Shown here piece by piece: positions 551 through 46,555 of a stretch of DNA of 64,000 nt. The DNA lies in contig DAOLIT010000028.1 in NCBI GenBank assembly GCA_035328405.1, positions 577 through 64,576 of the forward strand, read 5' to 3'. The stretch comes from Pseudomonadota bacterium. Lineage in GTDB: Bacteria; Myxococcota_A; Polyangia; Palsa-1104; JAEUJZ01. How positions within the stretch are numbered: position 1 is the first letter of the stretch; every line of letters begins with the position of its first letter. The notes under the pieces were generated by a model. That model searched no databases, was not told the origin of the DNA, and saw nothing but the letters and a program-made list of their open reading frames with translations. The position numbers and the translations under genes are program-made.

Positions 551-1654
551 TCAAGTTGTCGCTTGAATGAACAGTTCCAAATCAATCCGGTACAGGTCCA
601 TGAGTGCCCGCAACGCGAAATCATCCTTCACGTCCAGACTCGGAAGCAACTTGTCTGCATGCGCAACAATGTTGCTAAAGTAGTCCCCAAAGATCGACGG
701 CAAGAACAATCGGGGATCAAATTTTTCGATCGTTTCAGCGATGTCCTTGTAGATGATCGCGGCATGTTTGAAGCGACCCAAACGTACCAATCTGTTGAAG
801 GCCCCAATTTTCTTGATGAGTGCGTGCATGAGAGGCGACAACGTGATCACCAAGGTCGGCTGTCCAGACACTCCTGACACCACAGCGATCGGACCCGTTT
901 TTCCGGTCGCTCCCCCTGATGCGTTTCCTGTTTCTGCATTTGGATCTTGTGGCTTCATGTGCTGTCTCTCCGAGGTAGGGAAGACTCCCTGCGTGTCATG
1001 GATTTCCAAACACTCATGTGAACTTCGATCTATCGGTGATATCTCCGACCCGTTCGCATTCCCATCCATTTTTGCAGACTCCTTTTTGGGGGATTCCTTC
1101 CGAGTGGTGGGAAGGTCGTGTAGGGACTTCTGTAGCTGTAATAATGCCGTCCTTGCCAAATAGGTTGGTGTTCCGGAAAACGTGTGCTCCAGATGTGCGA
1201 TCACCTCGGCAAGCTTCCCAAGCGCGGAGGCCTGATTCGCCTTCTCCCAATCCCCCAGAAGCGTTTGCCACGCCTTTGGATTGAGTTTCTTTGCAAACCT
1301 GAATTGGCTTTGAAGAGTGGTTGCAAAAAAGCGCAGCGCGCCATCCAGATGACGCAATTTGTTGTGCGCTGGTCCGACGAGGGAAAACTGTACCTCCAGT
1401 ACATGCAGAGTAGCCTCAAACACCCGTTCCAGCGCCCCCATTCCTTGTTGATCAAGGACTGCATACAAGAGAACCCCCAATGTTCGTGCATCATACACAC
1501 CGTCGCGCCAGAGTTTCTCTGCAATTTCTCCAGCGGGCACAAATTGATTGCGTTCGGCCATAGACAGAATTTGATCCAAATCAGCGTCGATCGAGTTTGT
1601 TCCAACGACCTTCGGAGGTCCAAGCGGTTGTCGAAAAAAATCCAAGTCAATCAT
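551..1654 (-). CDS. TssA-like (ImpA_N-type) T6SS protein, provisional
   Basis: 367-aa ORF. The N-terminal stretch ...WRDGVYDARTLGVLLYAVLDQQGMGALERVFEATLHVLEVQF...HLDGALRFF... resembles the ImpA_N/TssA N-domain pattern. A Ser/Pro/Lys-rich central linker follows. The start overlaps the upstream DUF4280 stop as ATGA (1651-1654). By-eye assignment only. Confidence 0.5.
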   Translation of the reverse strand: MIDLDFFRQPLGPPKVVGTNSIDADLDQILSMAERNQFVPAGEIAEKLWRDGVYDARTLGVLLYAVLDQQGMGALERVFEATLHVLEVQFSLVGPAHNKLRHLDGALRFFATTLQSQFRFAKKLNPKAWQTLLGDWEKANQASALGKLAEVIAHLEHTFSGTPTYLARTALLQLQKSLHDLPTTRKESPKKESAKMDGNANGSEISPIDRSSHECLEIHDTQGVFPTSERQHMKPQDPNAETGNASGGATGKTGPIAVVSGVSGQPTLVITLSPLMHALIKKIGAFNRLVRLGRFKHAAIIYKDIAETIEKFDPRLFLPSIFGDYFSNIVAHADKLLPSLDVKDDFALRALMDLYRIDLELFIQATT

Positions 1655-2058
1655 GCCTCACTCCTTTCAACCTTCGGCGTATTGCCAGACGGAAACGCAA
1701 CTGCGCACGGAGCCGGGTCCGCGATTCGGATTTGTCCTCCTTCCGAACAAAGCAAAACCGCGTCTGTCGATAGCACCGTCAACTTGACCAGTTGAACGAC
1801 TTGTTCGCGCTGCGCCCATGTTCCCATCGGTTTAGGAACGCAAACAGGGGGACTCCCGCTTAGCTTCGATCTGGCAACCACAGGAGGAGACCCACACCGC
1901 GAAAAGGGTGTGATGTTGGAACCGGGTTTCACGTCTTCTACGGTCGCAAATGGCTGTCCAGACGTACAAAAAACTCCGCGCGAAAGCACGACCAACGTAG
2001 ACCCCCCTTGACCCCAAGTGCACACAAGTCTTGCTCCGTTGCGAACCCACTCACTCAT
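1651..2058 (-). CDS. DUF4280-family PAAR-like spike-tip protein
   Basis: The track ORF runs to 2211, but the ATG at 2058 (MSEWVRNGARLVCTWGQGGSTLVVL...) forms an ATGA overlap with the stop of the upstream gene. The 135-aa product fits the DUF4280 pattern: GA.L.C..G...L.V, FATVEDV, NITPF..CGSPP, PPVCVP, LLCSEGGQIRI. Confidence 0.75.
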   Translation of the reverse strand: MSEWVRNGARLVCTWGQGGSTLVVLSRGVFCTSGQPFATVEDVKPGSNITPFSRCGSPPVVARSKLSGSPPVCVPKPMGTWAQREQVVQLVKLTVLSTDAVLLCSEGGQIRIADPAPCAVAFPSGNTPKVERSEA

Positions 2059-3962
2059 CCCATTCCCCCTTTCTTGGTGGCTCTCTGCGCGTCCCCTTTC
2101 CTCTTGTTCAAGACCGTTGCATTTGTCGTTACCCGAAGTGCATCCAGCAAACGAAAGGTCGGTTCTTCCTCTCTGTCTCTTAGTGTTCCGCGCAGAAACT
2201 CTCGTTCGCAAAAAGCAGCATCCACCTCTTTGCCATTCATTCTTGGGAACATCGCAAACTGTTCGATGAAATCCGGCAGAGCGGAAGAACCCAACCGCTG
2301 TAGGATGACTTCTCGTACGATGGATTCCCTGACCGTATTTAGTTCACGTGCGACGGTGAGCGGCTCAGGCCCCGTAAACAGCAGAAGCACTATTCCGCCA
2401 CGATCGCCCGGCTCACAAACCACCAAGGATGCTGCAAGAAACGGCAATTTTTGCACAACGTCCGTGACTTCCTGAGCAGGATACGGTCGCCCCCGTTTGC
2501 TCGGCAGATAAGTTCCACAGTATAGGTAGCCTCCTTCTTGCGAGGACAGAAGCAAACCACAACCCCTTTTATGCGAATTCAACACGCCGATTTCGGAAGG
2601 CAGCCTAACTTTCCTGGATGACCCTGCGTTTGTCTCTGTTTCTGGCTCTGTTTCTGGCTCTGTTTCTGGCTCTGTTACACTCTCTGTTCCAGTCCTCGCT
2701 CCCTGCAATGTTCCTGGATATTCCAATGTGTACGTTCGCACAGGAGATACCCGCAAAAAGCGTGAAAAAGCGCCTTTTCTCCGCAACGAAAACAGCAGAC
2801 ATCCACCAATGGCCGAGTCATAAAGCCATGTTTGACATTCCGTATCCCGAAGGTCTGCACGATGAACAAAGTCATTCCAATGCATTCCTTCTGGACTCAG
2901 TGCTTCTATCAGACAGAGCCGAAGACCGAACTGTGCCCATGGTCTGGCACGAGGATGTTCAATCAGGACGCTGTCACGAAGTTGCTCTCCGACCAGCAAC
3001 ACATGAAGTTCGCACGGAAGACTCTTTTCAACCAGAGAATTGTGAAGCGACAAGGGGTCACAGTGTACATACGCTCCCCCATGAAACAGACAACACAGTA
3101 TGAGCAGAGGAACATACTGCAAGGAGTCCGAACCCGGAGCTGCCACCGTCGATCCAGGCCACAACGACAAGTGCAAAAGGCCGTCTCTCATCAGGGACAA
3201 CAAGACATCCCGCGCACGCAATTCTGTGGGTCCGGTGTTCTTGTCATCCCAACGATCAAACGGCGAAAAAAGAGCGAACACAGAGTCCTTGGGAGAATAC
3301 GTATGCGACGTGTAGTGGTGATCGATTCCCAATATCGGCGTAGGAAGTTCTTCGACAAATAGGCAACGGTCGTGGAACGGGCTCAGAAGCGAAGAGTAAC
3401 GCAAGGGAGTCGAGATCTTGGCATCGGGAACGGCTTGAATCCGTCTGTGCAAAAAATCCAAACCACGAGGAGGAAGGACAGTCACTTTCAGGCCCATCCT
3501 CAGCCCACTCAGCAGCGCAATGAGTAACTCTGGTTCTACATCCGAGATGATGCACAAGGCGTCTCCTGCTTTGAGTTGCTTGGCCTGCCATTTCTGACAC
3601 CGTGCCGTACATGCCTCGTGCAATTCTTGATAACTCAAGCAAGACCAAAGCGCTTTTTCGTTCCCCGCATTGCGTAGGGAAGAGCGGACACGTACCGCTT
3701 GGGAATCCATGGTTTGATACAGAAGTGCGGGTCGATTTGCATTGTGCGCGAGATGTCGAAGCACGGCATCGTGATACAGATCCACACCGCTGTGCATGTT
3801 GCTTTTGAGAGACGCAGGACACCGATCCAGATGCAGTTTGACCAGGGTAAAAAAGAATGCCTCCCGTGCTTTGCGCGTTTCCTCTAGCCACGGCATCCGG
3901 CGAAACAATCCGTCACCCGGTTGCGTGATTCCCAACAGATCGGCTGGTTCAAACTGTGTCAC
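2055..3962 (-). CDS. ANL-superfamily (acyl-CoA synthetase / adenylate-forming enzyme)-like protein with a degenerate P-loop
   Basis: 635 aa. The N-terminus follows the ANL layout (DLYHDAVLRHLAHNANRPALLY...LSYQELHEACTARCQKWQAKQLKAGDALCIISDVEPELLIALLSGLRMGLKVTVLPP). The C-terminal subdomain is also ANL-like (GTYLPSKRGRPYPAQEVTDVVQKLPFLAASLVVCEPGDRGGIVLLLF; FPRMNGKEVD, matching the A10 GK). The position of the (S/T)SGTTGxPKG loop instead reads FSPFDRWDDKNTGP. The GTG start overlaps the upstream stop (GTGA); an alternative ATG lies at M23. Confidence 0.6.
   Translation of the reverse strand: MTQFEPADLLGITQPGDGLFRRMPWLEETRKAREAFFFTLVKLHLDRCPASLKSNMHSGVDLYHDAVLRHLAHNANRPALLYQTMDSQAVRVRSSLRNAGNEKALWSCLSYQELHEACTARCQKWQAKQLKAGDALCIISDVEPELLIALLSGLRMGLKVTVLPPRGLDFLHRRIQAVPDAKISTPLRYSSLLSPFHDRCLFVEELPTPILGIDHHYTSHTYSPKDSVFALFSPFDRWDDKNTGPTELRARDVLLSLMRDGLLHLSLWPGSTVAAPGSDSLQYVPLLILCCLFHGGAYVHCDPLSLHNSLVEKSLPCELHVLLVGEQLRDSVLIEHPRARPWAQFGLRLCLIEALSPEGMHWNDFVHRADLRDTECQTWLYDSAIGGCLLFSLRRKGAFSRFLRVSPVRTYTLEYPGTLQGARTGTESVTEPETEPETEPETETNAGSSRKVRLPSEIGVLNSHKRGCGLLLSSQEGGYLYCGTYLPSKRGRPYPAQEVTDVVQKLPFLAASLVVCEPGDRGGIVLLLFTGPEPLTVARELNTVRESIVREVILQRLGSSALPDFIEQFAMFPRMNGKEVDAAFCEREFLRGTLRDREEEPTFRLLDALRVTTNATVLNKRKGDAQRATKKGGMG
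2635..2676. repeat. In-frame 12-bp tandem repeat (tctgtttctggc x3.5) encoding (TEPE)n inside the ANL-like gene
   Basis: Read directly: 2635-2646, 2647-2658 and 2659-2670 are identical, plus a half unit. The protein reads SVTEPETEPETEPETETN. Confidence 0.95.
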
Positions 3963-4414
3963 AGATTTTGTTCTCTTTTCCGTCGGAAAAAGCCGCTCAA
4001 AGCCAAGTCCAGTTCCTTCAGTAGGAGTCCAATCTCTCTCTTCACACTGACGCTGCTCGGACCTCTGTGCGCTTCATTCTGTTGCGAAGACAGAAGCGTT
4101 ATTTGCTCACAAAGGGGCTTCCACACAGAGATCAAGGACAAACGATCCTCGGGGAAGACAGTGCGCAGGCGTTGCGCAAGCTTGACGAGCAGCTCGTCTG
4201 GTCTTTCCACGATTACATGCGATTGGATGGCCACCTGACGCAATTCTTCCGGCGTTTGTGTAGCCCGAGTACGAGGCGCAAGACTCTCTTTCGGAAGCTC
4301 CTCCGCGAGGTCCTGTTCAACGCGACGAGTGGTTTCCTTGCAAGCAGGATTTGCACGTTCCCAGCGTTGTCGTAACTCTTGTGGATCAAAACGGAACCCC
4401 CAATCCTTTGGCAT
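3959..4414 (-). CDS. Hypothetical 151-aa protein
   Basis: ATG preceded by AAGGGGGA about 9 nt upstream. The stop overlaps the next gene's start (GTGA). The protein is charged and probably helical, with no motif I recognise. Confidence 0.6.
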   Translation of the reverse strand: MPKDWGFRFDPQELRQRWERANPACKETTRRVEQDLAEELPKESLAPRTRATQTPEELRQVAIQSHVIVERPDELLVKLAQRLRTVFPEDRLSLISVWKPLCEQITLLSSQQNEAHRGPSSVSVKREIGLLLKELDLALSGFFRRKREQNL

Positions 4415-4478: not shown

Positions 4479-5186
4479 TTACAGGTTGGAGAAAACCAAC
4501 AACCCACCGATAAACAAGGTCAAGAGACTCAACGAAGCCAAATAGTACCAAGCAGAAGAACGGCTTTTCTGTGCCACTTGCGGAGCTGGCGAAACCATGT
4601 GAATGAGTGCTTTGTCAGCGTGAGCTTGCAATTCCCTTGCATCGCGTCGCCTTTTCCTCTTCCGAATCGGATTCACTGCTCCTGGGATACGCTCTGTGAC
4701 CAGTGCCTTGTACCGAAGTAGCTTGCTGTTGTCAGCCCCGAATTTTCCAACAAAGCCGGATGCCAGGCAGTAATACAGAACTTCAAAAACCACTGAAGGG
4801 GTGTCTGGCTTCGCCAATCGTTCGTCGACAAAGTCATAGAAGACATCTCCTCCGTAATTGATCTGGAACAGATCGGATTGCAGCAGGAGCCAGCTAGTCT
4901 GTTGCTGTTTCGGTAGATGACTCATCACCATTTCATCGCAGAGCAAGACCAGTGGAAACATCACCAAGTAGACTTCGTTCTCGCCCATCTCTCGGGTCAG
5001 ATTGTCCTTGAGTGTGTCAAGCTGCGTTTTGACCTCGCTGCGCAGACGATCCAGTGTCTCACTAGGAATCATTGTTGCGACCCCATTGCGCTCTCTTGTT
5101 TTCTCTTTCTGATGCACCGTGCGTTCAAGGAGATTGGCAATATCTCGTCTGAGCATGATGATCATCTTCCATAACGTGAGTTTCAC
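4479..5186 (-). CDS. tssL: TssL / DotU-family membrane-complex protein
   Basis: 235 aa with a DotU-like core (YLVMFPLVLLCDEMVM...WLLLQSDLF...GGDVFYDFVDERL...VFEVLYYCLASGFVGKF) and a single C-terminal TM (WYYLASLSLLTLFIGGLLVF). The GTG start overlaps the tssF stop; alternative ATGs lie 7 and 10 codons in. Confidence 0.75.
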   Translation of the reverse strand: MKLTLWKMIIMLRRDIANLLERTVHQKEKTRERNGVATMIPSETLDRLRSEVKTQLDTLKDNLTREMGENEVYLVMFPLVLLCDEMVMSHLPKQQQTSWLLLQSDLFQINYGGDVFYDFVDERLAKPDTPSVVFEVLYYCLASGFVGKFGADNSKLLRYKALVTERIPGAVNPIRKRKRRRDARELQAHADKALIHMVSPAPQVAQKSRSSAWYYLASLSLLTLFIGGLLVFSNL

Positions 5187-6883
5187 ACAGTTCTCCTTTG
5201 CGCTCGGGGAATCTCCGCATGTTTCAATGGAATCAGGTCAGGAGTCGTCCGAATGTCGACTCGTGCTTCGTAGTCCCACGCATCCAAAATGTTCGCAAGT
5301 TGCAATAGGTACTGCGTGAGCATCGGAGTATCCTGGTCATCATGAGGTGCGAGTTCGATGTGATACACATGACGAATACCTGCGCCGCTGAGCGTTCCGT
5401 CGGGAACGATCGAATGGGTGATCTTGGAAAGGAGTTTGGTCATGCGCGCAAAGGGGCTCCGTTCCAAAGAGGCGAACATCTCCAATAGGTCTAGCAGTTC
5501 TTCTTTTTGCAACACCGGTTTCATTTTCAGGGATAGAAGGTACAAGAGACGATCTGGATCTTGACGCAGAGGGGAATCGAGTGACTGAGAAAGGAGACCG
5601 ATTTGCCTAAAATCGAGACCCGCCGCCACTCGCTCAAGCGGAATCACCTGGACAGGACCCACGGCTCCATTCACAAACAGTGGCTGATACCAATGCGCCT
5701 CGACCACCAACTGTTGGGGGTCCATGAATGCTTCGGGTCTGCGGATAATCAAGGAATACGAAGGAAAGCGAGTATCGCTTGTCTGTTCCTCGATTTCGTA
5801 TGCCTGACGGAAGGTTCCCAACGCAGCATGCCCGAGCGGCTCTAGACCTTTTGCTGTCGTCCGATACACTCCCAAAGGCCGCTCCATCGCAAAAGTGGAA
5901 TCATTGTTTAGGAAGCGAACAGGGTACTCGTCCTTGGTTCCATCACAATCGATCGTGCGGGAAAACGCGCGGTAACGATTGGCCACCGCCACGGTGTGTG
6001 GTCGGAATACGTCTCGATGCAAAGGTTGGTCGCGCGGAAAATCATGGTCCAAATCCATGCAAACATACACTCTGTTCCATGTCTGTGTAGCAGGGGGAAT
6101 CGTGATATACACCATAAGATCCTGCGACGGAAAATGGAAAAATGTACGGACCTGTTCGAGCGGGTTTTGCGCATTGTCTTCATACGGACGATCGAAGTAC
6201 ATTCCGAAAGTCACTTCACAGCGGACTCCACTCGTATTCGGTCCAAAATTCCCATCGTAGAACACGAAGCACTCTTTCAAGTGTTTCCTCAGAAGATGAT
6301 GCAATTTCAGGGAGGCTGGGTAGTGGTCCAGGTAGTTGATGTGTATGGGAATCGTTCCCAAATTGTCCCCCCGTTGATGCAGAGACAAGAACATCAGCAC
6401 CAAACGGAACCCCTGTTTCGTCAATTGCAACTCAACACGAGCTAACGTAATCGGCACAACGCGCAGTTCCGAAAGAGTCTGGAACGATCCGACTGCACCG
6501 TCGAGGGTCCGAAACTGCATCGAACTCCCACGCGGCAGAGTCACCGTGTCTGTCATCTGCGGAGTAACGACTGCCTGAAGCATCGTCATGCTGGGCAGAG
6601 GCTGCAAAATGAAGTGAAAGTAGGCCGACAGAAGCCGCTTCCAGGTCACAAACAGATTCCGCATCGTCGTCTGACGTGTACGCACCGAGCTGTACGCCAA
6701 TGCTTCAATCAAACGCCTGACATCGGGGTCCTCCATACCAAGCTGGGCAGACGGATGTTCAAGTTGGTAGCGTACTCTTTCATCGTCGAGTAGGCGCAAC
6801 TCCTCCAGCAAACTTTCCTGCACATTCCGGGTTTCCTTCATGCACCTGTGGCCTCTTTGCAAACGCTCATCATTGCAACGCAA
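5183..6883 (-). CDS. tssF: TssF (ImpG/VasA-like) baseplate protein
   Basis: The N-terminus fits the TssF pattern: LLEELRLLDDERVRYQLEHPSAQLGMEDPDVRRLIEALAYSSVRTR...LQPLPSMTMLQAVV. The size (~550 aa) is typical. The true start may be M15 (6841). Confidence 0.85.
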   Translation of the reverse strand: MRCNDERLQRGHRCMKETRNVQESLLEELRLLDDERVRYQLEHPSAQLGMEDPDVRRLIEALAYSSVRTRQTTMRNLFVTWKRLLSAYFHFILQPLPSMTMLQAVVTPQMTDTVTLPRGSSMQFRTLDGAVGSFQTLSELRVVPITLARVELQLTKQGFRLVLMFLSLHQRGDNLGTIPIHINYLDHYPASLKLHHLLRKHLKECFVFYDGNFGPNTSGVRCEVTFGMYFDRPYEDNAQNPLEQVRTFFHFPSQDLMVYITIPPATQTWNRVYVCMDLDHDFPRDQPLHRDVFRPHTVAVANRYRAFSRTIDCDGTKDEYPVRFLNNDSTFAMERPLGVYRTTAKGLEPLGHAALGTFRQAYEIEEQTSDTRFPSYSLIIRRPEAFMDPQQLVVEAHWYQPLFVNGAVGPVQVIPLERVAAGLDFRQIGLLSQSLDSPLRQDPDRLLYLLSLKMKPVLQKEELLDLLEMFASLERSPFARMTKLLSKITHSIVPDGTLSGAGIRHVYHIELAPHDDQDTPMLTQYLLQLANILDAWDYEARVDIRTTPDLIPLKHAEIPRAQRRTV

Positions 6884-6919: not shown

Positions 6920-9900
6920 CTATTCCTTAAAGTGCTGTGCTGTTTTGTCTGCCGCTTGTTCTGTCCGTGGTGCCAGTTGTTTTGCGGCACTCATGACATT
7001 CTTTGCAAACGCCAGGACCTTGGCCAACCAGTCCTCTCCAATTGGTTCCAGTGGTCCCTCTTTGCCCTCTGTTTGCTCCCACTTGTTGCTGATTTGCGAG
7101 CCTTTTCCGGGCTCAAGGAACGCCAGTTCGCTCTTCTGGTTCTGCGGTTCAAGTGCTTCGCCCTCAGTCTTGAGCCACTCCTCGGTGAGTTCCGCCAAGG
7201 CCGTTTCATTTTCCGCAGTTCCCCTTTGAGTTTTGCCCTGATCTCCGCCCTCATGCAGTGCCCTTGTTTTAAGAATTTCTAACGTCTTTTTCAGGACGTG
7301 GGCCAGATCCTGCGGAAGTTGCTTTGCTGCGACCGCGCGCTGTCCCTGGTTCATCAGTTCCGCCACGTCATTGTGTTGCGAAAGGACATGTAGCCAGGGT
7401 TTGAGATCCGACAGTTTCCGTATACTACCGGAGTTCCCATCGGGAGTCTTCTCGGGAGTCTTCTCGCCTATCGACAACGCAGCGCCCAAAATCGATGCTC
7501 CAACAGAGAGAATGTTCTCACCCGGAAGGCTCAACAGAGTAGCGGTTGGAGCCGCTTTCAAGATTGTTTCCACCGTTTCCCAGTCTTTCACAAGCGCGCG
7601 AGAAGCACTTTTTGGGGCCTCTTTTTGGGAGAAGGACACCTGCGTTTTTGCAACCCCTTTTTCGGCGCTCTGAACGGTCTCCGTGATCGCATCCAGCACA
7701 ATTCGCTTGGGAAATGATTCGCTGCCTTCTTTGGCACTTTTCTCGGTAGTTTCTTTTGCAGTCCCCTTTGGAGTTTCCTTTGCAGCCCCCTTTGGAGTTT
7801 CTTTTGCAGTCCCCTTTGGAGTTTCCTTTGCAGCCCCCTTTGCAGCCCCTTTGGCGGTCCCCTTTGAAGGGTCCGTAGTCGATTTCTGTCCTATTTCTTG
7901 GACTACATCTTTCGTTGTTTGTGATGTCTTTTCCTTTGACGACGGAGTAGCCGCATCTGTCCCTGTTTTCTGTTGCGTCGTGGGCTGTCCCTTCACAGTC
8001 CCCTGTCCCGCCTCTTTGATGGCCCCCTTTTCGATCTCTTGTGCGAATTTCTTTTCTGCTGTCTGCATCGAGGCATTCACAACACTTTTCGGATCAGGTT
8101 TCAGTATTTCGATCGCTCTCGATGAGGTATCTTTGTATGAATCATCCGCCAGCGACGCCGCAGCCTCCGCGATTGCATCCATTCGCGGAGGCTTTCCTTC
8201 CACAATGTCTGCCGTTATTTTCAACACCTGCATCGCTGCGACTAGTTCTGGGAGTCGATGAAGTGCCACAATGGGATTTTCCGCGATTGCAATCGCCGAA
8301 GATCGAGGCAGATGGCCCGCTTCTGTTGCAGCAGCAGCAAAGTCCACGATCGGTTGGAGCTTGTTTGGCTCGTGATCTCGTGCAACCCCTATGGTTTCTG
8401 TGTCATGGTTCGGGACTTCCTTTTGAAGCAGTTGAGCGCGCAGTTCGGCTACTTCCAGACTGCTCATGTTCGCTAGTTGGTATCCACGGATGGCATGCGG
8501 TGCAATCGATGGGGGCAAAAGGTCCGCTCTCCCCGCCAGCCCGAGGAGAATGAACAACACAGCCAATTCTGGGCGAGCATCAAAAATCGCTTCCGCAATG
8601 TTCCGCAATGGAGCAGAGTGGTTCCCAGAAAGAACCCCCGCTTGTCCCGCGAGTGCCGCAGAAAGAAGCTGTGGAATCAGCAACGGTCTGTATCTGAGTA
8701 CATCAAGCAGTCTGTCGCGATGGATGGCTTCCAGGAGTGCCAACAGCGACGCTTCCGAGAGACCCGGAATCTCGACCACATTGGATGGTTTGTCTGCATT
8801 TGTAATCGACTCCACATCATCCAAGGAGTGCGAGGGAGGGGGCGCATCGGAAAGGTCTGTGTGCTCTGGATTTGTGGGTTCTGATTCCACCGGAGGGAGG
8901 TCATGTCCCAACTCTGCAAGATACATTTGAAGTGCCAGGTAGAACTGCACTTGATAGGGGGTTAGGTGTTCTGGATGACCCGCATCGCTGTCTTGTTCCA
9001 GGTTGGTTCGCGCCTGAAAGGCCTTCAACATGTCTTCCAGTTCAGCGATTGGGTGAGGGGCTCCTGCTGACGCGATCTGGAAAGTATGCAGCATGTCATT
9101 GGGAGTCATCCCTTCCCAGATCATATGTGAAAACAGAGACACCAAACGCTCCATGACAACATAGGGGTCCTGCTGCGGCGCTCCTCGCAACAGATGACTC
9201 TTGGTGCTTTCTGAGTCCCCAAACTTGTCGTCCAAACCGCCGTTTGCGAGCGCCTCGATCTTCGCCAAAAGCTTGGCCGCAGCCTCGACGTTGCCCGGTT
9301 TCTGCGATGGAATGGGGCCACTGCGAGCAACCTCTCCGAAGAGTGAATTCCCGATCCGCTCAGCGGCCTCCTTCGCACTCGAAGTCACGCTTGCAACAGT
9401 CTGTTTTGGCTCAGCGCGCTGGACTTCCACCTTCTTCTGTTTGTCGTGCGCGAAAGCATCATTTTGTCGGTCCCGCCATCGCTGTTTCCGGCTGTGGGGT
9501 TCGCGATCATCCGCGCTGGACTCTGCTGCTTCCTGTTCGTGTTGTGCTGCACGGGACTCTGTATGTTGCGGTTGTTTGTCGTCTTCCGGGGATTCTGTTT
9601 CCTGCTGTTCGGTACGCTTCCTGGACACTCTCTTTGTGCCACGTTGTCTGACAGCTTCTTCGGTCGGTGAGATGAGCCTCATCACAAGACTTGATGCGGT
9701 CTTGGCGTCTTCTGAATTCTCGCGCCAAATCGGCTCTGAGTTTTTCTGGCTTCGTTCGGAATCTCGTTCGGAATCCTGCTCAGAATCTCGTTCGGAATCC
9801 TCGTGAGTCTCCCTTCCCAAATCTTTGTGAGACTTTTCCATCGAGGCTTTTTCCGCGTCTTTTTTGGAGTCTTTTTTGGAGACTCGTTCGGAATCCTTTT

Positions 9901-12900
9901 CTGAATCCCTTTCGGACTCATCCTCGTCGTCCAGATCGTTCTCTGTATCCAGTGAGTTCGTCTTTGGTGGCGGTCCAATTTCAACCTGCGTCCCATGCAC
10001 ACGAGTTGTCACGCCAGTCATTGAATTGCGGAGTCCTGTTGAAGAAACCTCGGAACCGAAACTGTGAATGCCAGGCCCGCCCCCAAAGGTTCCGACTCCT
10101 CCAGTGATTCCCATGAGTCGAATCCCCTTGAGCGCATTGATAAGGACCTTGAGGGCATTCACAACGACCCCGTTCATGGCTGTGAGGTTCAGACCGGACG
10201 GCGTTTGCAACGACATTCCAGCCAAACTGGATAAGGTCATCCGTCCCAGACTTTGGTAGCTCGAACTTTTCTGCGAGCGGACCCACAACTTTTCGACGTC
10301 GATTTTCAGTTCACGACACTTGATGGTGATGGTGTCGCCGTGTTGTTCGATGCTGGCTTTGTGGTCTCCGTTTGCCGTCTCAATGCGGATGCCCTGTGGT
10401 CCCACGAGCACGGCGTGGCTGGCCTTGTGTGAAGGACAATCGATTTCCAAAGCAGCCCCACTCCCAGAGTCCATTCCAAACCGACAGTGGGAAGGAACGA
10501 GAGGTTCTCCTTGGGTCTCCGATCCGGGCCTGGGCAACGGAGGTAGTTCAGGCGGGGATTTGTCGTTGTTTTCTTCGCCTGTATCCTCGAAATCCTTGTC
10601 GCTGTCCTTGTCTCTGTCCTTTCCCCTGTCCTTGCCCCTGTCCTTGTTTCTGCTCTCGTCTCTGCTCTCGTCTCTGCTCTCGTCTCTGTCCTTGCCTCTT
10701 GGTATGTCGTTGGCAGCGAAACTCGGTACAGCATAGGGGTACTTTTCATCACCGATATCGCCCCATCCTTGATCGTACAAACCCCGTCTACTCGCTTGCT
10801 GGGGATTGTTTTTGCGGTTCGGTGTGCGTGCTCGTTCTGCGACGATGACATCCGCGTCAAATTCCGACTGTGGTTTTTCATCCAATTCGTGCGCAAGGAG
10901 TCCGTCCGCCTTCCGCATTCTGGCATTTTCGGATACGCGGGCATGCTTTTCTGTCCGCAGCATTTTTGTAGAGTGGAGTGTTTCTTTCGTGTCCGTTTCG
11001 TGAAGCGATTGTTCTGTCTTTGCGAGTTCCTGCAATTCTCGTTTGGCCTGTTCAGCGACGATCTTCCGCAGATTCCTCACAACCCAACGCGGAGTTTTTG
11101 CGGTGATGTCTGTTTTTCTTCCAACTTGGGGGACCGACTCCTGTGGGCCTCTGATGTGGTTTGCTTTTGGACTCTGTTTTGCATTTTTCTTCAAAAATTT
11201 CGCAGAGATGTTGTGCATGGCTGCGGCGTGCTTGGCCTGCGCTTTCAGGAGTGTCATCGTAATCACTTGGTCTGGAAGGCTTGCAGTAGGTCCGGGGACC
11301 TGTGCCTCAGCTTTCATGCCGCCCCCCATTCCTCCTGGCATGAGCGAAAGGAGTCCGGCTACCCCCGCCTTGCACTTGATCTCAAGCGCCTTGCTCAAAG
11401 CGAGCGTAGCCCTCTGGATGGCCAAATCCACCTTGGGACTGATCGGGGGAATCGACTTCTGTTCAATGCCGCTTTGGTACATGCGCAGAAACTGCATGGT
11501 GCTGTACCGTTGCCTTTGTATCTTGTATTCGGGCACGTCCTTGTCATACGTCAGTTTGTGTGTGACGCCGTTTGTGAAGTCGTGCCCGATCATGAGCTGG
11601 TTCCCCTGATTGCGCGACGGTATCGTCGCCATGGGTCGCCAGTCCAGATAACGACCCAGATCGGCTCTGTCGAAGTAGAGACTGACCTGTACGTGCTCCT
11701 TTCGATATGCAGGATAGAAGTACTGTCCAGGTTGAAAATTGGGAATGAAAGGGGTCTTGACGAGCTGGCAACCGAACACCGGCAATTGAATTTGATAGTA
11801 CTGCTGGCTACCAATAATCGTTGAGGCGTTTTCCCACGTTTGTGTTCCCGGCATGCCCATCATGGAATACACAATCCCTTCGACTTCCAGCGGATATCGG
11901 GGCTTCACATAGCTTGGTAAGGAGGGCTCTGTATCGCGGCCTGTTTTCAGAAAAACCGCCAAGGAACACGCAAACAGTCCCGTGCTTTTTGCGGACATCC
12001 TGGGCATCACATCGGTTTCGACGGTCTTGGCTTCAAACACCATGCGGGCGACGCGGTTGACTCGTCTGGCTGCTTTGGGAATCACAAATTCGTGGTTCGG
12101 AAAATCAAGGGGGTCCAAGTTGAAATCAAGACCCACACCCGGTGGAAAAGGCCTGGAAGGGAAGCGGCGAAAGTAGAGCAAAAACGCAGGAGATGGCTGG
12201 GAAAAGGTGGCCAACCGTTTGATGTATTCCATGGCAAAGTTCAACGGAACCGGCGTGGGAAACCACCTGTCTTGCTTCAGGGGAGAAAGCGCCTGCAAAT
12301 TCAGTACGGCTTGGGTACTCGCCACGCGCGCGGAGTCATTCCTAAGTCGCTCCTCATAAAAGCGTCCCATGGTTCCCGTTGTGACGATTTTCGCGATGTC
12401 TCTTGCAAAAATCTGGAACGGTTTGGGACGACGGGGGCGCTCCTGGATGACGTAGATGTTCTGTGAGTAATCGTAGGTCAGGGTGTGCTCCATCTCGTCG
12501 AGCCGCCAGACCAACCAGTCATAAAAACTCGCGCGCTCGGTAACGGAGTGTTGCCGATTCAGATTGAGGAAAATCTGGTCTTGTGGAAGCGAAAGGGGGA
12601 TGCTTTTCACCTTCACGTTGATGAGCAAATTGGCGTTCTTTTTGATCACCTGGGACATTGATGTGTTCGTGTACAGCTCAATGGGAAAATGTTGCTTCCA
12701 CAAAGCTTGCGCGGGGTCGCAAAACTCAATCGCATATTCACGGACAGAGACGATTAGATCATTGGCTTCGCGGCTTGTATGTTGACAGACCGTGTGCGAG
12801 GTGATGACCGCCGTAAGCAGCATCTCGATGGGAACCAAAGGGCCGTTCGGTGAAAGTCCTGGTTCCAGCAGTTGCGGGATTCCCACCATGGCAGGAACCG

Positions 12901-13849
12901 GCGCAACAATCGGAACCAATTTCGGGGGAAGGACCCCCGGAGGCGCAACATTCTGGAAAGACTTCAATGCGACGCTGATGTCAGGGGGGGGAATCGGTCT
13001 TGCGAGTTGTTCCAGAAGTACCTGTCTCTCTTTCAAGAGCTGCGCTTGCCCGGCGGCATTGCCGGCCAACTGGGCTTGGATCAGTTGGGTCGCAGCAGCG
13101 ATGGTTTCAGGGGGTTGAGGAACGACCAGCAAAAGGGAGAGATTTCCCGAAAGAGACGCGGCCTGTTCCTGCATGAGCAGCAGCGCACGTTGATTCTGAA
13201 GTAGACTCTGCTGAAGGATTGCCCGTTGCTGCTGAATGGCCGCCGCAACTGCCGCTGGAAGTCCTTGAAGAGCCTGGAGTGCCTGTGCAATCGCCGGACT
13301 GATGGGCACGACGACGGGCATCGTGGGAATCGCTCCGACAATTTGAGGAACCATTTCAAGGGTTAAAGGGGGCACGGCTTTCAGATCGTTGTACACAGGA
13401 CGCAAACACAGTTTGAGCATCAAGATGTTGTTGCCCGCAAACGCCTTGGCTACTTTGTCGGTATCCTTGATGTCGCCAAGGAGTTTTGTGTCGGACATCC
13501 GAAAACGCATCCGCCCCGTGAAACCATGGGTGGCCATGTCAAGAGAGAGGTGTGTGATGTTGTGTCCTTCAATCTTAATGGGAGGAAGTTGTCCCAAAAA
13601 AGGGGGCATGATGGGACTGCCCGGCTTCACCGCACCGGGCGGCGGTTTGTGGGGAGGCTTCGTTGCCAAGTCGATGTTATCGAGTTCCGTGAGTACAAGC
13701 GGAACGGGCGGGGGTGCAGGCAACACTGCCGGAGGAACCACTTGCACAATTTCAAACACAAAACTCAGCTGTTCGTGAAATGTAGGGGTCTCTTTGGCCA
13801 GCTCTTCTTCGAGGGTATCTGGCTCTTGTCCGGGGTGTTTACGATCCAT
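6920..13849 (-). CDS. vgrG: Giant VgrG-like spike protein (gp27-like, gp5 OB-like and beta-helix regions plus a ~940-aa C-terminal extension)
   Basis: ~2,310 aa. gp27-like segments: ITHLSLDMATHGFTGRMRFRMSD; EYAIEFCDPAQALWKQHFPIELYTNTSMSQVIKK; SFYDWLVWRLDEMEHTLTYDY. gp5 OB-like segment: YYQIQLPVFGCQLVKTPFIPNFQPGQYFYPAYRKEHVQVSLYFDRADLGRYLDW. Beta-helix-like repeats: GIRIETANGDHKASIEQHGDTITIKCRELKIDVEK...LNLTAMNGVVVNALKV. The ATG at 13849 (track TTG at 13855) overlaps the tssE end. Confidence 0.75.
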   Translation of the reverse strand: MDRKHPGQEPDTLEEELAKETPTFHEQLSFVFEIVQVVPPAVLPAPPPVPLVLTELDNIDLATKPPHKPPPGAVKPGSPIMPPFLGQLPPIKIEGHNITHLSLDMATHGFTGRMRFRMSDTKLLGDIKDTDKVAKAFAGNNILMLKLCLRPVYNDLKAVPPLTLEMVPQIVGAIPTMPVVVPISPAIAQALQALQGLPAAVAAAIQQQRAILQQSLLQNQRALLLMQEQAASLSGNLSLLLVVPQPPETIAAATQLIQAQLAGNAAGQAQLLKERQVLLEQLARPIPPPDISVALKSFQNVAPPGVLPPKLVPIVAPVPAMVGIPQLLEPGLSPNGPLVPIEMLLTAVITSHTVCQHTSREANDLIVSVREYAIEFCDPAQALWKQHFPIELYTNTSMSQVIKKNANLLINVKVKSIPLSLPQDQIFLNLNRQHSVTERASFYDWLVWRLDEMEHTLTYDYSQNIYVIQERPRRPKPFQIFARDIAKIVTTGTMGRFYEERLRNDSARVASTQAVLNLQALSPLKQDRWFPTPVPLNFAMEYIKRLATFSQPSPAFLLYFRRFPSRPFPPGVGLDFNLDPLDFPNHEFVIPKAARRVNRVARMVFEAKTVETDVMPRMSAKSTGLFACSLAVFLKTGRDTEPSLPSYVKPRYPLEVEGIVYSMMGMPGTQTWENASTIIGSQQYYQIQLPVFGCQLVKTPFIPNFQPGQYFYPAYRKEHVQVSLYFDRADLGRYLDWRPMATIPSRNQGNQLMIGHDFTNGVTHKLTYDKDVPEYKIQRQRYSTMQFLRMYQSGIEQKSIPPISPKVDLAIQRATLALSKALEIKCKAGVAGLLSLMPGGMGGGMKAEAQVPGPTASLPDQVITMTLLKAQAKHAAAMHNISAKFLKKNAKQSPKANHIRGPQESVPQVGRKTDITAKTPRWVVRNLRKIVAEQAKRELQELAKTEQSLHETDTKETLHSTKMLRTEKHARVSENARMRKADGLLAHELDEKPQSEFDADVIVAERARTPNRKNNPQQASRRGLYDQGWGDIGDEKYPYAVPSFAANDIPRGKDRDESRDESRDESRNKDRGKDRGKDRDKDSDKDFEDTGEENNDKSPPELPPLPRPGSETQGEPLVPSHCRFGMDSGSGAALEIDCPSHKASHAVLVGPQGIRIETANGDHKASIEQHGDTITIKCRELKIDVEKLWVRSQKSSSYQSLGRMTLSSLAGMSLQTPSGLNLTAMNGVVVNALKVLINALKGIRLMGITGGVGTFGGGPGIHSFGSEVSSTGLRNSMTGVTTRVHGTQVEIGPPPKTNSLDTENDLDDEDESERDSEKDSERVSKKDSKKDAEKASMEKSHKDLGRETHEDSERDSEQDSERDSERSQKNSEPIWRENSEDAKTASSLVMRLISPTEEAVRQRGTKRVSRKRTEQQETESPEDDKQPQHTESRAAQHEQEAAESSADDREPHSRKQRWRDRQNDAFAHDKQKKVEVQRAEPKQTVASVTSSAKEAAERIGNSLFGEVARSGPIPSQKPGNVEAAAKLLAKIEALANGGLDDKFGDSESTKSHLLRGAPQQDPYVVMERLVSLFSHMIWEGMTPNDMLHTFQIASAGAPHPIAELEDMLKAFQARTNLEQDSDAGHPEHLTPYQVQFYLALQMYLAELGHDLPPVESEPTNPEHTDLSDAPPPSHSLDDVESITNADKPSNVVEIPGLSEASLLALLEAIHRDRLLDVLRYRPLLIPQLLSAALAGQAGVLSGNHSAPLRNIAEAIFDARPELAVLFILLGLAGRADLLPPSIAPHAIRGYQLANMSSLEVAELRAQLLQKEVPNHDTETIGVARDHEPNKLQPIVDFAAAATEAGHLPRSSAIAIAENPIVALHRLPELVAAMQVLKITADIVEGKPPRMDAIAEAAASLADDSYKDTSSRAIEILKPDPKSVVNASMQTAEKKFAQEIEKGAIKEAGQGTVKGQPTTQQKTGTDAATPSSKEKTSQTTKDVVQEIGQKSTTDPSKGTAKGAAKGAAKETPKGTAKETPKGAAKETPKGTAKETTEKSAKEGSESFPKRIVLDAITETVQSAEKGVAKTQVSFSQKEAPKSASRALVKDWETVETILKAAPTATLLSLPGENILSVGASILGAALSIGEKTPEKTPDGNSGSIRKLSDLKPWLHVLSQHNDVAELMNQGQRAVAAKQLPQDLAHVLKKTLEILKTRALHEGGDQGKTQRGTAENETALAELTEEWLKTEGEALEPQNQKSELAFLEPGKGSQISNKWEQTEGKEGPLEPIGEDWLAKVLAFAKNVMSAAKQLAPRTEQAADKTAQHFKE
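7749..7870. repeat. In-frame 24-bp tandem repeat encoding (AKETPKGT/A)n in the VgrG C-terminal extension
   Basis: The ttgca units start at 7756, 7780, 7804 and 7828 (period 24), then degenerate to period 12. The protein reads KGAAKGAAKETPKGTAKETPKGAAKETPKGTAKETTEK. Confidence 0.9.
9753..9800. repeat. In-frame 12-bp tandem repeat (cgttcggaatcy x4, one unit diverged) encoding (DSER/DSEQ)n in VgrG
   Basis: Read directly. The protein reads EDSERDSEQDSERDSERS, inside a wider acidic low-complexity tract (~9740-9960). Confidence 0.85.
10649..10684. repeat. In-frame 12-bp tandem repeat (tctgctctcgtc x3) encoding (RDES)n in VgrG
   Basis: Three identical 12-mers read directly. The protein reads KDRDESRDESRDESRNKDRGKDRGKDRDKDSDKD, inside a wider tract (~10575-10700). 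Confidence 0.9.
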
Positions 13850-14225
13850 GCACAAGCTCCACAGTCACACTCCCGCTAGGTGTATGAAAGCGAATGAGCA
13901 ACTGACAGGGGAACCCCCAATAGCTAGACAGGATGGTGCCTTGCAGCTCAATGTAAAGCCGAAGTGTGTTGTCTCTGCCGTGTACTTTTAGACTGTTCAC
14001 GCGCAACCTGGGTTCGTACGTTGCGATGGTGTCGTTGATTTCACGCAGAAGAGTCTGTGTGGCGGCACTTCCGCCCGATTCCTTCAAGTAGTCTGCGGTG
14101 CCAAAGCTGTGAAGGAGTGAACCAAAGCCCCGGCGCGCATTGAGCACATGGTCTAGATTCCGCACCACGCTTTGTGCCTCTGTATCCTTGGGTGCGTCCG
14201 GCAAAAAGCGATTCAAAAACGACAC
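13839..14225 (-). CDS. tssE: TssE (gp25-like) baseplate wedge protein
   Basis: 128 aa fitting the GPW_gp25 pattern: VVRNLDHVLNARRGFGSLLHSFG...LLREINDTIATYEPRLRVNSLKV...LRLYIELQG. The GTG start is preceded by GGGGGAG. Confidence 0.85.
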   Translation of the reverse strand: MSFLNRFLPDAPKDTEAQSVVRNLDHVLNARRGFGSLLHSFGTADYLKESGGSAATQTLLREINDTIATYEPRLRVNSLKVHGRDNTLRLYIELQGTILSSYWGFPCQLLIRFHTPSGSVTVELVHGS

Positions 14226-18290: not shown

Positions 18291-18330
18291 GGTGTCCTCC
18301 TTATGGGGTGAGAGATACCGTGACTGTGAC

Positions 18331-18485: not shown

Positions 18486-18514
18486 TACTTGCTGTTGGGA
18501 AAGACATGTACCGT

Positions 18515-39249: not shown

Positions 39250-42200
39250 CTATTCCTTAAAGTGCTGTGCTGTTTTGTCTGCCGCTTGTTCTGTCCGTGG
39301 TGCCAGTTGTTTTGCGGCACTCATGACATTCTTTGCAAACGCCAGGACCTTGGCCAACCAGTCCTCTCCAATTGGTTCCAGTGGTCCCTCTTTGCCCTCT
39401 GTTTGCTCCCACTTGTTGCTGATTTGCGAGCCTTTTCCGGGCTCAAGGAACGCCAGTTCGCTCTTCTGGTTCTGCGGTTCAAGTGCTTCGCCCTCAGTCT
39501 TGAGCCACTCCTCGGTGAGTTCCGCCAAGGCCGTTTCATTTTCCGCAGTTCCCCTTTGAGTTTTGCCCTGATCTCCGCCCTCATGCAGTGCCCTTGTTTT
39601 AAGAATTTCTAACGTCTTTTTCAGGACGTGGGCCAGATCCTGCGGAAGTTGCTTTGCTGCGACCGCGCGCTGTCCCTGGTTCATCAGTTCCGCCACGTCA
39701 TTGTGTTGCGAAAGGACATGTAGCCAGGGTTTGAGATCCGACAGTTTCCGTATACTACCGGAGTTCCCATCGGGAGTCTTCTCGGGAGTCTTCTCGCCTA
39801 TCGACAACGCAGCGCCCAAAATCGATGCTCCAACAGAGAGAATGTTCTCACCCGGAAGGCTCAACAGAGTAGCGGTTGGAGCCGCTTTCAAGATTGTTTC
39901 CACCGTTTCCCAGTCTTTCACAAGCGCGCGAGAAGCACTTTTTGGGGCCTCTTTTTGGGAGAAGGACACCTGCGTTTTTGCAACCCCTTTTTCGGCGCTC
40001 TGAACGGTCTCCGTGATCGCATCCAGCACAATTCGCTTGGGAAATGATTCGCTGCCTTCTTTGGCACTTTTCTCGGTAGTTTCTTTTGCAGTCCCCTTTG
40101 GAGTTTCCTTTGCAGCCCCCTTTGGAGTTTCTTTTGCAGTCCCCTTTGGAGTTTCCTTTGCAGCCCCCTTTGCAGCCCCTTTGGCGGTCCCCTTTGAAGG
40201 GTCCGTAGTCGATTTCTGTCCTATTTCTTGGACTACATCTTTCGTTGTTTGTGATGTCTTTTCCTTTGACGACGGAGTAGCCGCATCTGTCCCTGTTTTC
40301 TGTTGCGTCGTGGGCTGTCCCTTCACAGTCCCCTGTCCCGCCTCTTTGATGGCCCCCTTTTCGATCTCTTGTGCGAATTTCTTTTCTGCTGTCTGCATCG
40401 AGGCATTCACAACACTTTTCGGATCAGGTTTCAGTATTTCGATCGCTCTCGATGAGGTATCTTTGTATGAATCATCCGCCAGCGACGCCGCAGCCTCCGC
40501 GATTGCATCCATTCGCGGAGGCTTTCCTTCCACAATGTCTGCCGTTATTTTCAACACCTGCATCGCTGCGACTAGTTCTGGGAGTCGATGAAGTGCCACA
40601 ATGGGATTTTCCGCGATTGCAATCGCCGAAGATCGAGGCAGATGGCCCGCTTCTGTTGCAGCAGCAGCAAAGTCCACGATCGGTTGGAGCTTGTTTGGCT
40701 CGTGATCTCGTGCAACCCCTATGGTTTCTGTGTCATGGTTCGGGACTTCCTTTTGAAGCAGTTGAGCGCGCAGTTCGGCTACTTCCAGACTGCTCATGTT
40801 CGCTAGTTGGTATCCACGGATGGCATGCGGTGCAATCGATGGGGGCAAAAGGTCCGCTCTCCCCGCCAGCCCGAGGAGAATGAACAACACAGCCAATTCT
40901 GGGCGAGCATCAAAAATCGCTTCCGCAATGTTCCGCAATGGAGCAGAGTGGTTCCCAGAAAGAACCCCCGCTTGTCCCGCGAGTGCCGCAGAAAGAAGCT
41001 GTGGAATCAGCAACGGTCTGTATCTGAGTACATCAAGCAGTCTGTCGCGATGGATGGCTTCCAGGAGTGCCAACAGCGACGCTTCCGAGAGACCCGGAAT
41101 CTCGACCACATTGGATGGTTTGTCTGCATTTGTAATCGACTCCACATCATCCAAGGAGTGCGAGGGAGGGGGCGCATCGGAAAGGTCTGTGTGCTCTGGA
41201 TTTGTGGGTTCTGATTCCACCGGAGGGAGGTCATGTCCCAACTCTGCAAGATACATTTGAAGTGCCAGGTAGAACTGCACTTGATAGGGGGTTAGGTGTT
41301 CTGGATGACCCGCATCGCTGTCTTGTTCCAGGTTGGTTCGCGCCTGAAAGGCCTTCAACATGTCTTCCAGTTCAGCGATTGGGTGAGGGGCTCCTGCTGA
41401 CGCGATCTGGAAAGTATGCAGCATGTCATTGGGAGTCATCCCTTCCCAGATCATATGTGAAAACAGAGACACCAAACGCTCCATGACAACATAGGGGTCC
41501 TGCTGCGGCGCTCCTCGCAACAGATGACTCTTGGTGCTTTCTGAGTCCCCAAACTTGTCGTCCAAACCGCCGTTTGCGAGCGCCTCGATCTTCGCCAAAA
41601 GCTTGGCCGCAGCCTCGACGTTGCCCGGTTTCTGCGATGGAATGGGGCCACTGCGAGCAACCTCTCCGAAGAGTGAATTCCCGATCCGCTCAGCGGCCTC
41701 CTTCGCACTCGAAGTCACGCTTGCAACAGTCTGTTTTGGCTCAGCGCGCTGGACTTCCACCTTCTTCTGTTTGTCGTGCGCGAAAGCATCATTTTGTCGG
41801 TCCCGCCATCGCTGTTTCCGGCTGTGGGGTTCGCGATCATCCGCGCTGGACTCTGCTGCTTCCTGTTCGTGTTGTGCTGCACGGGACTCTGTATGTTGCG
41901 GTTGTTTGTCGTCTTCCGGGGATTCTGTTTCCTGCTGTTCGGTACGCTTCCTGGACACTCTCTTTGTGCCACGTTGTCTGACAGCTTCTTCGGTCGGTGA
42001 GATGAGCCTCATCACAAGACTTGATGCGGTCTTGGCGTCTTCTGAATTCTCGCGCCAAATCGGCTCTGAGTTTTTCTGGCTTCGTTCGGAATCTCGTTCG
42101 GAATCCTGCTCAGAATCTCGTTCGGAATCCTCGTGAGTCTCCCTTCCCAAATCTTTGTGAGACTTTTCCATCGAGGCTTTTTCCGCGTCTTTTTTGGAGT

Positions 42201-46179: not shown

Positions 46180-46555
46180 GCACAAGCTCCACAGTCACAC
46201 TCCCGCTAGGTGTATGAAAGCGAATGAGCAACTGACAGGGGAACCCCCAATAGCTAGACAGGATGGTGCCTTGCAGCTCAATGTAAAGCCGAAGTGTGTT
46301 GTCTCTGCCGTGTACTTTTAGACTGTTCACGCGCAACCTGGGTTCGTACGTTGCGATGGTGTCGTTGATTTCACGCAGAAGAGTCTGTGTGGCGGCACTT
46401 CCGCCCGATTCCTTCAAGTAGTCTGCGGTGCCAAAGCTGTGAAGGAGTGAACCAAAGCCCCGGCGCGCATTGAGCACATGGTCTAGATTCCGCACCACGC
46501 TTTGTGCCTCTGTATCCTTGGGTGCGTCCGGCAAAAAGCGATTCAAAAACGACAC
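46169..46555 (-). CDS. tssE: TssE (second copy)
   Basis: Exact copy of 13839..14225. Confidence 0.85.
   Translation of the reverse strand: MSFLNRFLPDAPKDTEAQSVVRNLDHVLNARRGFGSLLHSFGTADYLKESGGSAATQTLLREINDTIATYEPRLRVNSLKVHGRDNTLRLYIELQGTILSSYWGFPCQLLIRFHTPSGSVTVELVHGS

Follow-up and report, generated by a model that had tools for sequence, protein, structure and literature searches.

Within a 64-kb window of DNA from an uncultured myxobacterium (the whole analysed stretch of 64,000 nucleotides, contig DAOLIT010000028.1 of assembly GCA_035328405.1), one gene on the minus strand encodes a protein of 2,309 aa that is very probably the central spike of a type VI secretion system (T6SS) of the kind encoded by the Francisella pathogenicity island (FPI). 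In this protein a PdpA-like hub is fused to a VgrG-like needle, with helical additions and a putative payload borne on the spike. An earlier note, made from the DNA alone, had read the gene as an evolved VgrG, and this interpretation is partly upheld: the protein is a spike with a split head, a needle and a C-terminal extension, whereas its membership in the curated VgrG family is not supported. We file it as a PdpA-like hub/VgrG-like needle fusion from a Francisella-like T6SS of Myxococcota, and not as a member of the curated VgrG family.

The open reading frame (ORF) of the spike (6920..13855, minus strand) is uninterrupted over 2,311 codons counted from a TTG. Its homologues start with MDRK or MERK, which places the true start at the ATG at position 13849, two codons inside the TTG-started frame. 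The complete gene accordingly spans 6920..13849 (2,309 aa plus stop), and the same product is called in two other assemblies; spike residues are numbered below from this methionine (M1). The start overlaps the stop of the upstream tssE by 11 nt, as it does in the related loci L001–L003. The window itself consists of a 32,330-bp unit repeated exactly, with 0 mismatches, and each gene of the first unit recurs 32,330 bp further on, so that a second, identical spike copy lies at 39250..46179 on the minus strand (ORF 39250..46185).

Such an exact repeat reveals a processed or wrapped sequence and, together with the occurrence of hub and needle as separate genes in related loci, would suit an assembly or sequencing artefact that had joined two or more genes into one long frame. 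Against this, an ENA contig of 116 kb (ERZ27258524) and a JGI contig of 19 kb (3300006092) both encode the identical 2,309-aa product, and the 6,930-nt ORF shows zero differences between the window and either contig, which excludes a frameshift joining separate genes, the event that the earlier note had named as fatal to its reading. A search among 5.8 billion proteins further found 13 full-length homologues of 1,474–2,628 aa from different assemblies, which at 36–51% overall identity keep both the block order and the fused layout; one of them comes from a Myxococcales metagenome-assembled genome (MAG), where it lies within a syntenic T6SS locus. Medium-sized family members (650–855 aa) are likewise fused, and frames of 2,000–2,600 codons are kept in all close homologues. 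The ORF is real, and the probability of an artefact is negligible. As for the repeat, the 116-kb contig tracks the 32,330-bp unit at 99.95% identity and diverges from it at unit coordinate 31803, which indicates that the locus is chromosomal and that the periodicity stems from a wrapped or mis-circularised contig. An origin of the 32,330-bp period in a circular plasmid or phage was rejected on the same ground.

The family-model search that had been proposed as a check on the VgrG reading came back empty, an outcome that by the earlier note would refute its call: Pfam-A and NCBIfam (E<=1) and PHROGs gave zero family matches for the whole spike protein, and precomputed Pfam domains were found on none of 24 homologues. 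It is structure and profile evidence that identifies the spike instead. In a plain sequence search of PDB, Francisella PdpA took the first rank, though without significance (E 0.13), and a whole-length profile (A1) returned low-complexity noise (colicin E1, TCERG1) with PdpA at just E 0.13. A profile restricted to the core and built from seven sequences (A2) matched PdpA residues 312-406 at E 0.0014 through the block REY.IEF.DPAQALW..HFP, and also recovered 11 shorter stand-alone relatives of 504–661 aa. An AlphaFold model of aa 1–843, computed from a 24-sequence alignment, reached a mean predicted local distance difference test score (pLDDT) of 68.7, with the core blocks at 70–92. When this model was compared with PDB by Foldseek, ranks 1–3 were the PdpA structures 6u9e, 6u9f and 6u9g (E 1.7e-21 to 2.5e-21; 6u9e_A 1.7e-21; target-normalised template modelling score (TM) 0.46–0.57). 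Next came the spikes of extracellular contractile injection systems (eCIS), including the Photorhabdus virulence cassette (PVC) and the antifeeding prophage (AFP), at E 1e-12 to 8e-16. Then followed T6SS VgrG1 structures at E ~1e-12 (4mtk 6.6e-13; also 4uhv, 8gra and 9mlp), phage hub proteins and T4 gp27-gp5 (2z6b, E 1.5e-4), the VgrG1 and gp27-gp5 matches each spanning ~500 aligned columns. On this evidence, aa 1–832 are a spike hub of the gp27/gp5-OB type, with PdpA as its nearest and canonical VgrG as its second relative. The moderate-quality model contains the gp27-like head and the gp5 OB-fold by which a VgrG is defined structurally, and predicted fold and sequence similarity together point to a PdpA-like hub.

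When 1.84 billion representative proteins were scanned exhaustively with HMMER, 322 hub-family clusters emerged at 50% identity, mostly of 535–650 aa. This family of at least 322 clusters has no Pfam or NCBIfam model, and in the absence of such hidden Markov models (HMMs) standard annotation overlooks the spike of an entire T6SS lineage.

Segment borders within the protein were drawn from a conservation map of 14 giant proteins, from composition, from tandem repeats and from two AlphaFold models; all segments lie on the minus strand. The N-terminal part of the hub (aa 1–151; 13397..13849) is predicted to contribute a helix and the opening strands of the beta-barrel to the gp27/PdpA-like head. 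It is conserved in all 24 aligned family members, with G109, F110 and D131 invariant, and its strands in the AlphaFold model are 23–37, 98–119 and 142–151. A lineage-specific insertion in a hub loop follows (aa 152–340; 12830..13396), made of Pro-rich disordered arms and a Gln/Ala/Leu-rich helical hairpin (helices 197–242 and 247–283, AlphaFold pLDDT 66–88). These ~190 aa vary between close homologues, and the stand-alone hubs P0014–P0024 lack residues 152–340, which indicates that the split of the head is a real loop insertion. The hub core (aa 341–832; 11354..12829) is predicted to hold the remainder of the gp27-like head and the OB-like beta domains, and it ends in a conserved helix at 805–832; it is the most conserved segment of the protein, with 46–74% identity among giant homologues and 23–35% to stand-alone hubs.

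Between the OB region and the needle lie ~270 disordered residues, which form linker 1 (aa 833–1105; 10535..11353). Its sequence is first Gly-rich and then Lys/Arg/Asp/Glu-rich and of low complexity, with (G/D)KDR and DESR repeats and 12-nt tandem repeats at 10593-10699; 35% of its residues are charged, its grand average of hydropathy (GRAVY) is -1.12, and it is not alignable between homologues. The needle (aa 1106–1295; 9965..10534) is a Gly/Ser/Thr-rich, VgrG-like and probably beta-helical spike domain that is conserved in 13/13 giant homologues. Its homology is traced through loci in which hub and needle are encoded separately. The gene order in L003 is tssE, a 542-aa hub, a 186-aa needle, tssF and dotU, and that in L002 is tssE, a 646-aa hub, a 1,101-aa needle with extension, tssF and dotU. 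Spike residues ~1121–1223 align with the entire front of the 186-aa protein of L003, downstream of hub P0021 (E 1e-9), and residues ~1121–1286 align with residues 57–222 of the 1,101-aa protein of L002, downstream of hub P0019 (E 1e-10). A needle profile (A5) gave weak matches to the C-terminal beta-helix of the Anabaena contractile injection system spike (E 0.0054) and to the beta-helix of the T6SS VgrG 8gra (E 0.014).

A needle HMM applied to 171 retrieved family proteins found hub and needle fused in 26 of them, some of these fusions being 650–855 aa long and without an extension. The family thus includes a hub with a small needle, a hub with an extended needle, a fused hub-needle and a fused giant. 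Judged from these sequence comparisons, the spike gene is a natural fusion of a PdpA-like hub gene and a VgrG-like needle gene, and a plausible origin of linker 1 is the disordered tail that ends a stand-alone hub, joined to the disordered N-terminus of a needle protein.

Past the needle, the protein continues for ~1,000 aa that are predicted to be all-helical or disordered. This extension begins with linker 2 (aa 1296–1545; 9215..9964), an acidic, Ser/Glu/Asp/Lys-rich stretch of low complexity with 42% charged residues, a net charge of -14 and 12-nt repeats at 9752-9916, whose sequence and length vary between homologues. Then comes a conserved domain of ~360 aa, predicted to be all-alpha, that we call C1/C2 (aa ~1546–1905; 8135..9214). 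C1 (aa ~1550–1650) carries the motif SLFSHM.WEG.TP..MLHTF, and C2 (aa ~1700–1903) consists of repeated helical units, P-E-L...LG.A..AGLLPP; the two together show 41–48% identity to the eight closest homologues, with many invariant residues. The variable tail (aa 1906–2309; 6923..8134) is Lys/Ala/Glu/Thr-rich, with low-confidence predicted helices and AKETPKGT repeats encoded by an in-frame 24-nt x5 repeat at 7748-7866 (24/48-nt tandem repeat). Its identity to homologues is <25%, and its frame is nevertheless kept in all of them.

This layout agrees closely with what had been noticed in the DNA beforehand, namely gp27-like blocks split by a Pro-rich and Gln/Ala-rich segment at ~12870–13330 (here aa 152–340), a beta-helix-like region at ~9970–10500 (here the needle) and a long, mostly helical C-terminal extension at 6920–9740 with Lys/Thr/Pro repeats (here ~1,000 helical or disordered residues with AKETPKGT x5); the earlier coordinates of all three lie inside the segments drawn here. 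The remote-homology and structure searches that had been suggested for the extension found no fold or sequence relative. AlphaFold modelled the C-terminal 832 aa as all-helical at a mean pLDDT of 44, with C2 alone reaching 65–77 as a helical bundle. Foldseek of this model gave nothing below E 0.6, the matches listed (tryptophan dioxygenase and others) being meaningless. A profile search with C1/C2 found no further proteins carrying the domain, and a scan of the extension for transmembrane segments gave none that was convincing. C1/C2 is a conserved all-alpha domain without known relative.

The position of C2 in the spike is not fixed. In a sister clade (P0009–P0013; loci L007, L008, L010 and L011) the proteins stop ~50 aa after the needle and carry ~500 extra aa, including C2, at the site of the hub-loop insertion; to this insert the C-domain HMM gave matches of E 5.8e-16 to 1e-10. 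A second copy of C2 occurs in the tail of P0007 (E 7.8e-7). These findings indicate that C2 is a movable module which is always attached to the spike, either in the hub or after the needle.

Several observations weigh against the overall interpretation. For the hub, none of the VgrG, Phage_GPD (PF05954), Phage_base_V (PF04717), T6SS_Vgr, DUF2345 and TIGR VgrG models matches the spike, and the structural model is of moderate quality (mean pLDDT 68.7; TM to PdpA 0.42–0.57). The needle only weakly resembles the solved beta-helices of VgrG (E 0.005-0.014), and the search with needle profile A5 failed to recover Francisella VgrG. We know of no precedent among solved spikes for a 270-aa linker between OB domain and needle. 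As to the extension, most of it is low-confidence or disordered in the AlphaFold model, and no enzymatic or toxin fold or family was found for aa 1296–2309 in Pfam/NCBIfam, profile or Foldseek searches. The extension also co-varies with the spike among close relatives, and is not swapped in the manner of polymorphic toxin domains. Finally, no immunity gene follows the spike, as had been remarked earlier; the next gene downstream is tssF, which occupies the slot where an immunity gene would otherwise sit.

These points bear chiefly on what the extension does. That 654/832 residues of the C-terminal model fall below pLDDT 50, that linkers and tail are of low complexity, rich in tandem repeats and unalignable between homologues, and that the sister-clade proteins end so soon after the needle are all features of fast-evolving disordered filler, a spacer or packing of the baseplate cavity without specific activity, in which case only hub and needle would matter. 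We consider this improbable, because C1/C2 holds dozens of invariant residues over ~360 aa at 41–48% identity and part of it folds with moderate confidence, because C2 was retained after relocation in the sister clade (E down to 6e-16), and because no close homologue has lost its frame of 2,000–2,600 codons.

More plausible, though still unlikely, is that the extension acts as a platform for docking or as an internal adaptor. Under this alternative, the extension or C2 would recruit a separate cargo, for example the 635-aa protein at the IglF position or the IglI-family protein, or would contact the baseplate or membrane complex; the identity of the spike would be unchanged, and the arrangement would parallel the cargo-binding C-terminal extensions of some canonical VgrGs. 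C1/C2 is indeed conserved in step with hub and needle across the clade, C2 sits at two attachment points (hub loop and post-needle) as expected of a binding module, its short helical repeat units ending in LLPP resemble interaction repeats, and further candidate cargo genes are present in the locus, while an adjacent immunity gene and a toxin fold or family were both undetected. On the other hand, any partner is so far hypothetical, systems with a stand-alone hub and a 186-aa needle do without such a module, which is thus no core requirement, and ~1,000 aa per chain is large for an adaptor.

The reading that we favour, at slightly less than an even chance, is that C1/C2 is a putative payload which is borne by the spike and acts on or in the target. 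The lack of an immunity gene, the co-variation with the spike and the lack of a toxin fold weigh against a classic antibacterial toxin, and the first two of these are equally compatible with an effector and with a structural element or adaptor. An evolved VgrG with a toxin would be recognised by an effector domain and, usually, a nearby immunity gene, neither of which was found here, and the other extended members of the family carry apolipoprotein-like helical repeats and no toxin domain. The earlier description of the extension as the only obvious effector-sized payload in the locus was overstated, since the 635-aa ORF at the IglF position and the 367-aa IglI-family protein are also present. 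A broader proposal is that C1/C2 represents a hitherto undescribed class of domain, borne on the spike and active as an effector or on membranes, in a large unannotated FPI-like T6SS lineage beyond Francisella (at least 322 hub clusters) in which Myxococcota fused hub, needle and payload into a ~250-kDa chain; we consider this less likely than not.

In the assembly that we propose, the hub (aa 1–832) would form a trimer seated on the tube and baseplate and would match the six-fold symmetry of tube and baseplate to the three-fold symmetry of the needle. The needle (aa ~1106–1295) would trimerise as well, and the DUF4280/IglG-like protein encoded in the locus probably caps it. The ~270-aa disordered, charged linker 1 would let hub and needle assemble as though they were separate chains. 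Three copies of the extension may pack in the baseplate cavity around the needle; being covalently attached, they would be expelled with the spike and leave the cell upon sheath contraction, after which the C1/C2 payload could act on or in the target.

Among known spikes, the closest counterpart is that of Francisella. At 164 aa, Francisella VgrG is without gp27 and OB parts of its own, which PdpA supplies, and both proteins are secreted (PMC5924787, PMC10653695). PdpA has a basal helical lid and an internal cargo cavity (PMC10653695), and the T6SS-ii to which this spike belongs is restricted to the genus Francisella according to a 2026 review (PMC13584744). The myxobacterial hub has its best structural match, and a local sequence match, in the PdpA-VgrG spike (6u9e, 6u9f, 6u9g); relatives of the myxobacterial spike likewise have a hub with the gp27/OB-like parts and, separate from it, a short needle devoid of them, and the neighbours of the myxobacterial spike gene are of the FPI type (IglE, IglI, IglG-like, IglB-like sheath). 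In contrast to Francisella with its separate short VgrG, hub and needle here form one polypeptide, which contains a 270-aa disordered linker and carries ~1,000 aa of C-terminal extension. Sequence identity to PdpA is ~9–10%. Whereas the lid of PdpA is reportedly N-terminal, the helical element here is inserted in an internal loop. Further differences are that the spike gene lies between tssE and tssF and not at the start of the island, that the host is a myxobacterium, and that the locus has a recognisable TssE, which Francisella lacks, and a TssK.

Evolved VgrGs of T6SS-i, such as Vibrio cholerae VgrG-1 (ACD) and VgrG-3, consist of a head, an OB domain, a needle and a C-terminal extension. 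The myxobacterial spike shares this overall plan of gp27-like head, OB domain, a probably beta-helical needle and an extension that would travel with the spike. It differs from them in carrying no Phage_GPD, Phage_base_V or DUF2345 signature, in a head interrupted by a 190-aa insertion, in long disordered linkers on both sides of the needle, in an extension without recognisable enzymatic domain, and in its size, 2,309 aa being roughly twice the typical length. With eCIS spikes (Algoriphagus 7aef_q, Photorhabdus PVC 9qgm, Anabaena 7b5h and AFP 6rbk) it shares the hub and OB fold and, in the Anabaena case, the weak needle-profile match given above. Those spikes are ~500–600 aa long without extension, and the myxobacterial locus, unlike eCIS, has a T6SS membrane complex (DotU, IcmF-like, IglE) with a TssB/TssC sheath and has no tail-fibre or tape-measure genes.

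PdpA has so far been treated as a peculiarity of Francisella, whereas PdpA-like hubs form a family of considerable size in the environment, with 322 clusters at 50% identity. The graded series from hub plus needle to fused giant places the spike of Francisella in an evolutionary setting. The helical module borne by the fused giant, conserved and movable as it is, offers an obvious candidate for a payload, and its role may be that of an effector or of a cargo platform. A practical gain lies in better annotation of spikes that standard VgrG HMMs miss and in the definition of the domain C1/C2. If the reading as a new effector and lineage were true, a clade widespread in the environment would include the T6SS-ii of Francisella as one of its branches, and fused spikes would have evolved more than once from an ancestral split PdpA/VgrG spike.

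The locus around the spike occupies 551-26990 and 31932-32954, both on the minus strand, and its closest genomic relatives are Myxococcales and Polyangia MAGs. Along the minus strand, two Ser/Thr kinases and a TPR protein are followed by an IcmF-like protein (1,336 aa), the lipoprotein IglE, TssB, TssC, a 206-aa ORF, TssK, TssE, the spike, TssF/IglH, DotU, a 151-aa ORF, a 635-aa ORF, the DUF4280/IglG-like protein, the IglI-family protein and TssG; the opposite strand carries genes for a sigma-54 activator and an NHL-repeat protein. Immediately upstream of the spike, tssE (13839..14225, minus strand) encodes a gp25-like baseplate wedge (PF04965, E 5.6e-11), and immediately downstream lies the baseplate gene tssF/iglH (5183..6883, minus strand; PF05947 E 2.8e-22; TIGR03359; NF041246 IglH/TssF). 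IglE matches IglE_N (PF22361, E 4.3e-19) and NF041245 (E 3e-13), and the IglI-family protein scores 189.9 bits against a cutoff of 100 (E 9e-56). Among solved structures, TssC comes closest to Francisella IglB (3j9o), with 373 bits versus 334 for T6SS-i sheaths. TssK is canonical (PF05936, E 1.6e-46), its PDB matches being TssK and not IglD. HMMs of ClpV, TssA, Hcp and VgrG matched none of the locus ORFs scanned. The locus thus has the FPI components (IglE, IglI, an IglG-like protein and an IglB-like sheath, with no ClpV or TssA detected), whereas the divergent FPI baseplate, with no recognisable TssE and with IglD in place of TssK, is not seen. Given the recognisable TssE and the canonical TssK, we regard the locus as FPI-like and not as a strict T6SS-ii member.

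The DUF4280/IglG-like PAAR-type gene (1651..2211, minus strand) matches PF14107 at E 9.2e-16 and NF041248 (IglG) at E 2.9e-4, the latter below its cutoff. Its listed ORF of 186 aa overlaps the upstream gene by 157 nt, and the homologue in L001 has 128 aa; from the overlap, the true start is probably near 2040 and the product probably ~128 aa. The gene is left uncalled in the ENA and JGI assemblies, which have a 400-nt gap at this place (L004 21783-22184). The 151-aa ORF (3959-4414, minus strand) between dotU and the 635-aa gene lies at the position that vgrG takes in the FPI, a position conserved in L001, L002 and L003 (152, 160 and 97 aa). As a candidate for the real VgrG it was rejected: by eye its sequence looks charged and helical, PDB and family searches gave no match, and the true needle domain sits inside the giant spike gene.

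Between tssK and tssC, at the position of the tube gene (IglC/Hcp), a 206-aa ORF (15509-16129, minus strand) has no Pfam, NCBIfam, PHROG or PDB sequence match and probably encodes a very divergent tube protein; ORFs of 192–208 aa take the tube position in L001–L003. The 635-aa gene at the IglF position (2055-3962, minus strand) contains a sub-threshold AMP-binding-like stretch (E 0.004). Compared with the 116-kb contig, it shows a single in-frame 12-nt indel at ~2634-2645 (635 versus 631 aa), which is the sole difference in 23.8 kb.

Directly upstream of the IcmF-like gene, the two Ser/Thr kinases, which are of the Hanks type, flank the TPR protein (23041-26990, minus strand), and the sigma-54 enhancer-binding protein and the NHL-repeat protein of 834 aa are divergently transcribed (27380-31552, plus strand). 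The related locus L002 likewise has kinases and sigma-54 activators at its flanks, which points to conservation of a regulatory module. TssB (17748-18542, minus strand; 264 aa) has ~90 residues before its VipA domain (residues 91–243), whereas its homologues in L001 and L002 have 181–182 aa. With this extension the ORF reaches 28 nt into the iglE gene, and the additional N-terminus is either a real extension or an over-long start call. In L003 the sheath is encoded by a fused TssB-TssC gene (899 aa), with an eCIS_core-domain gene nearby.

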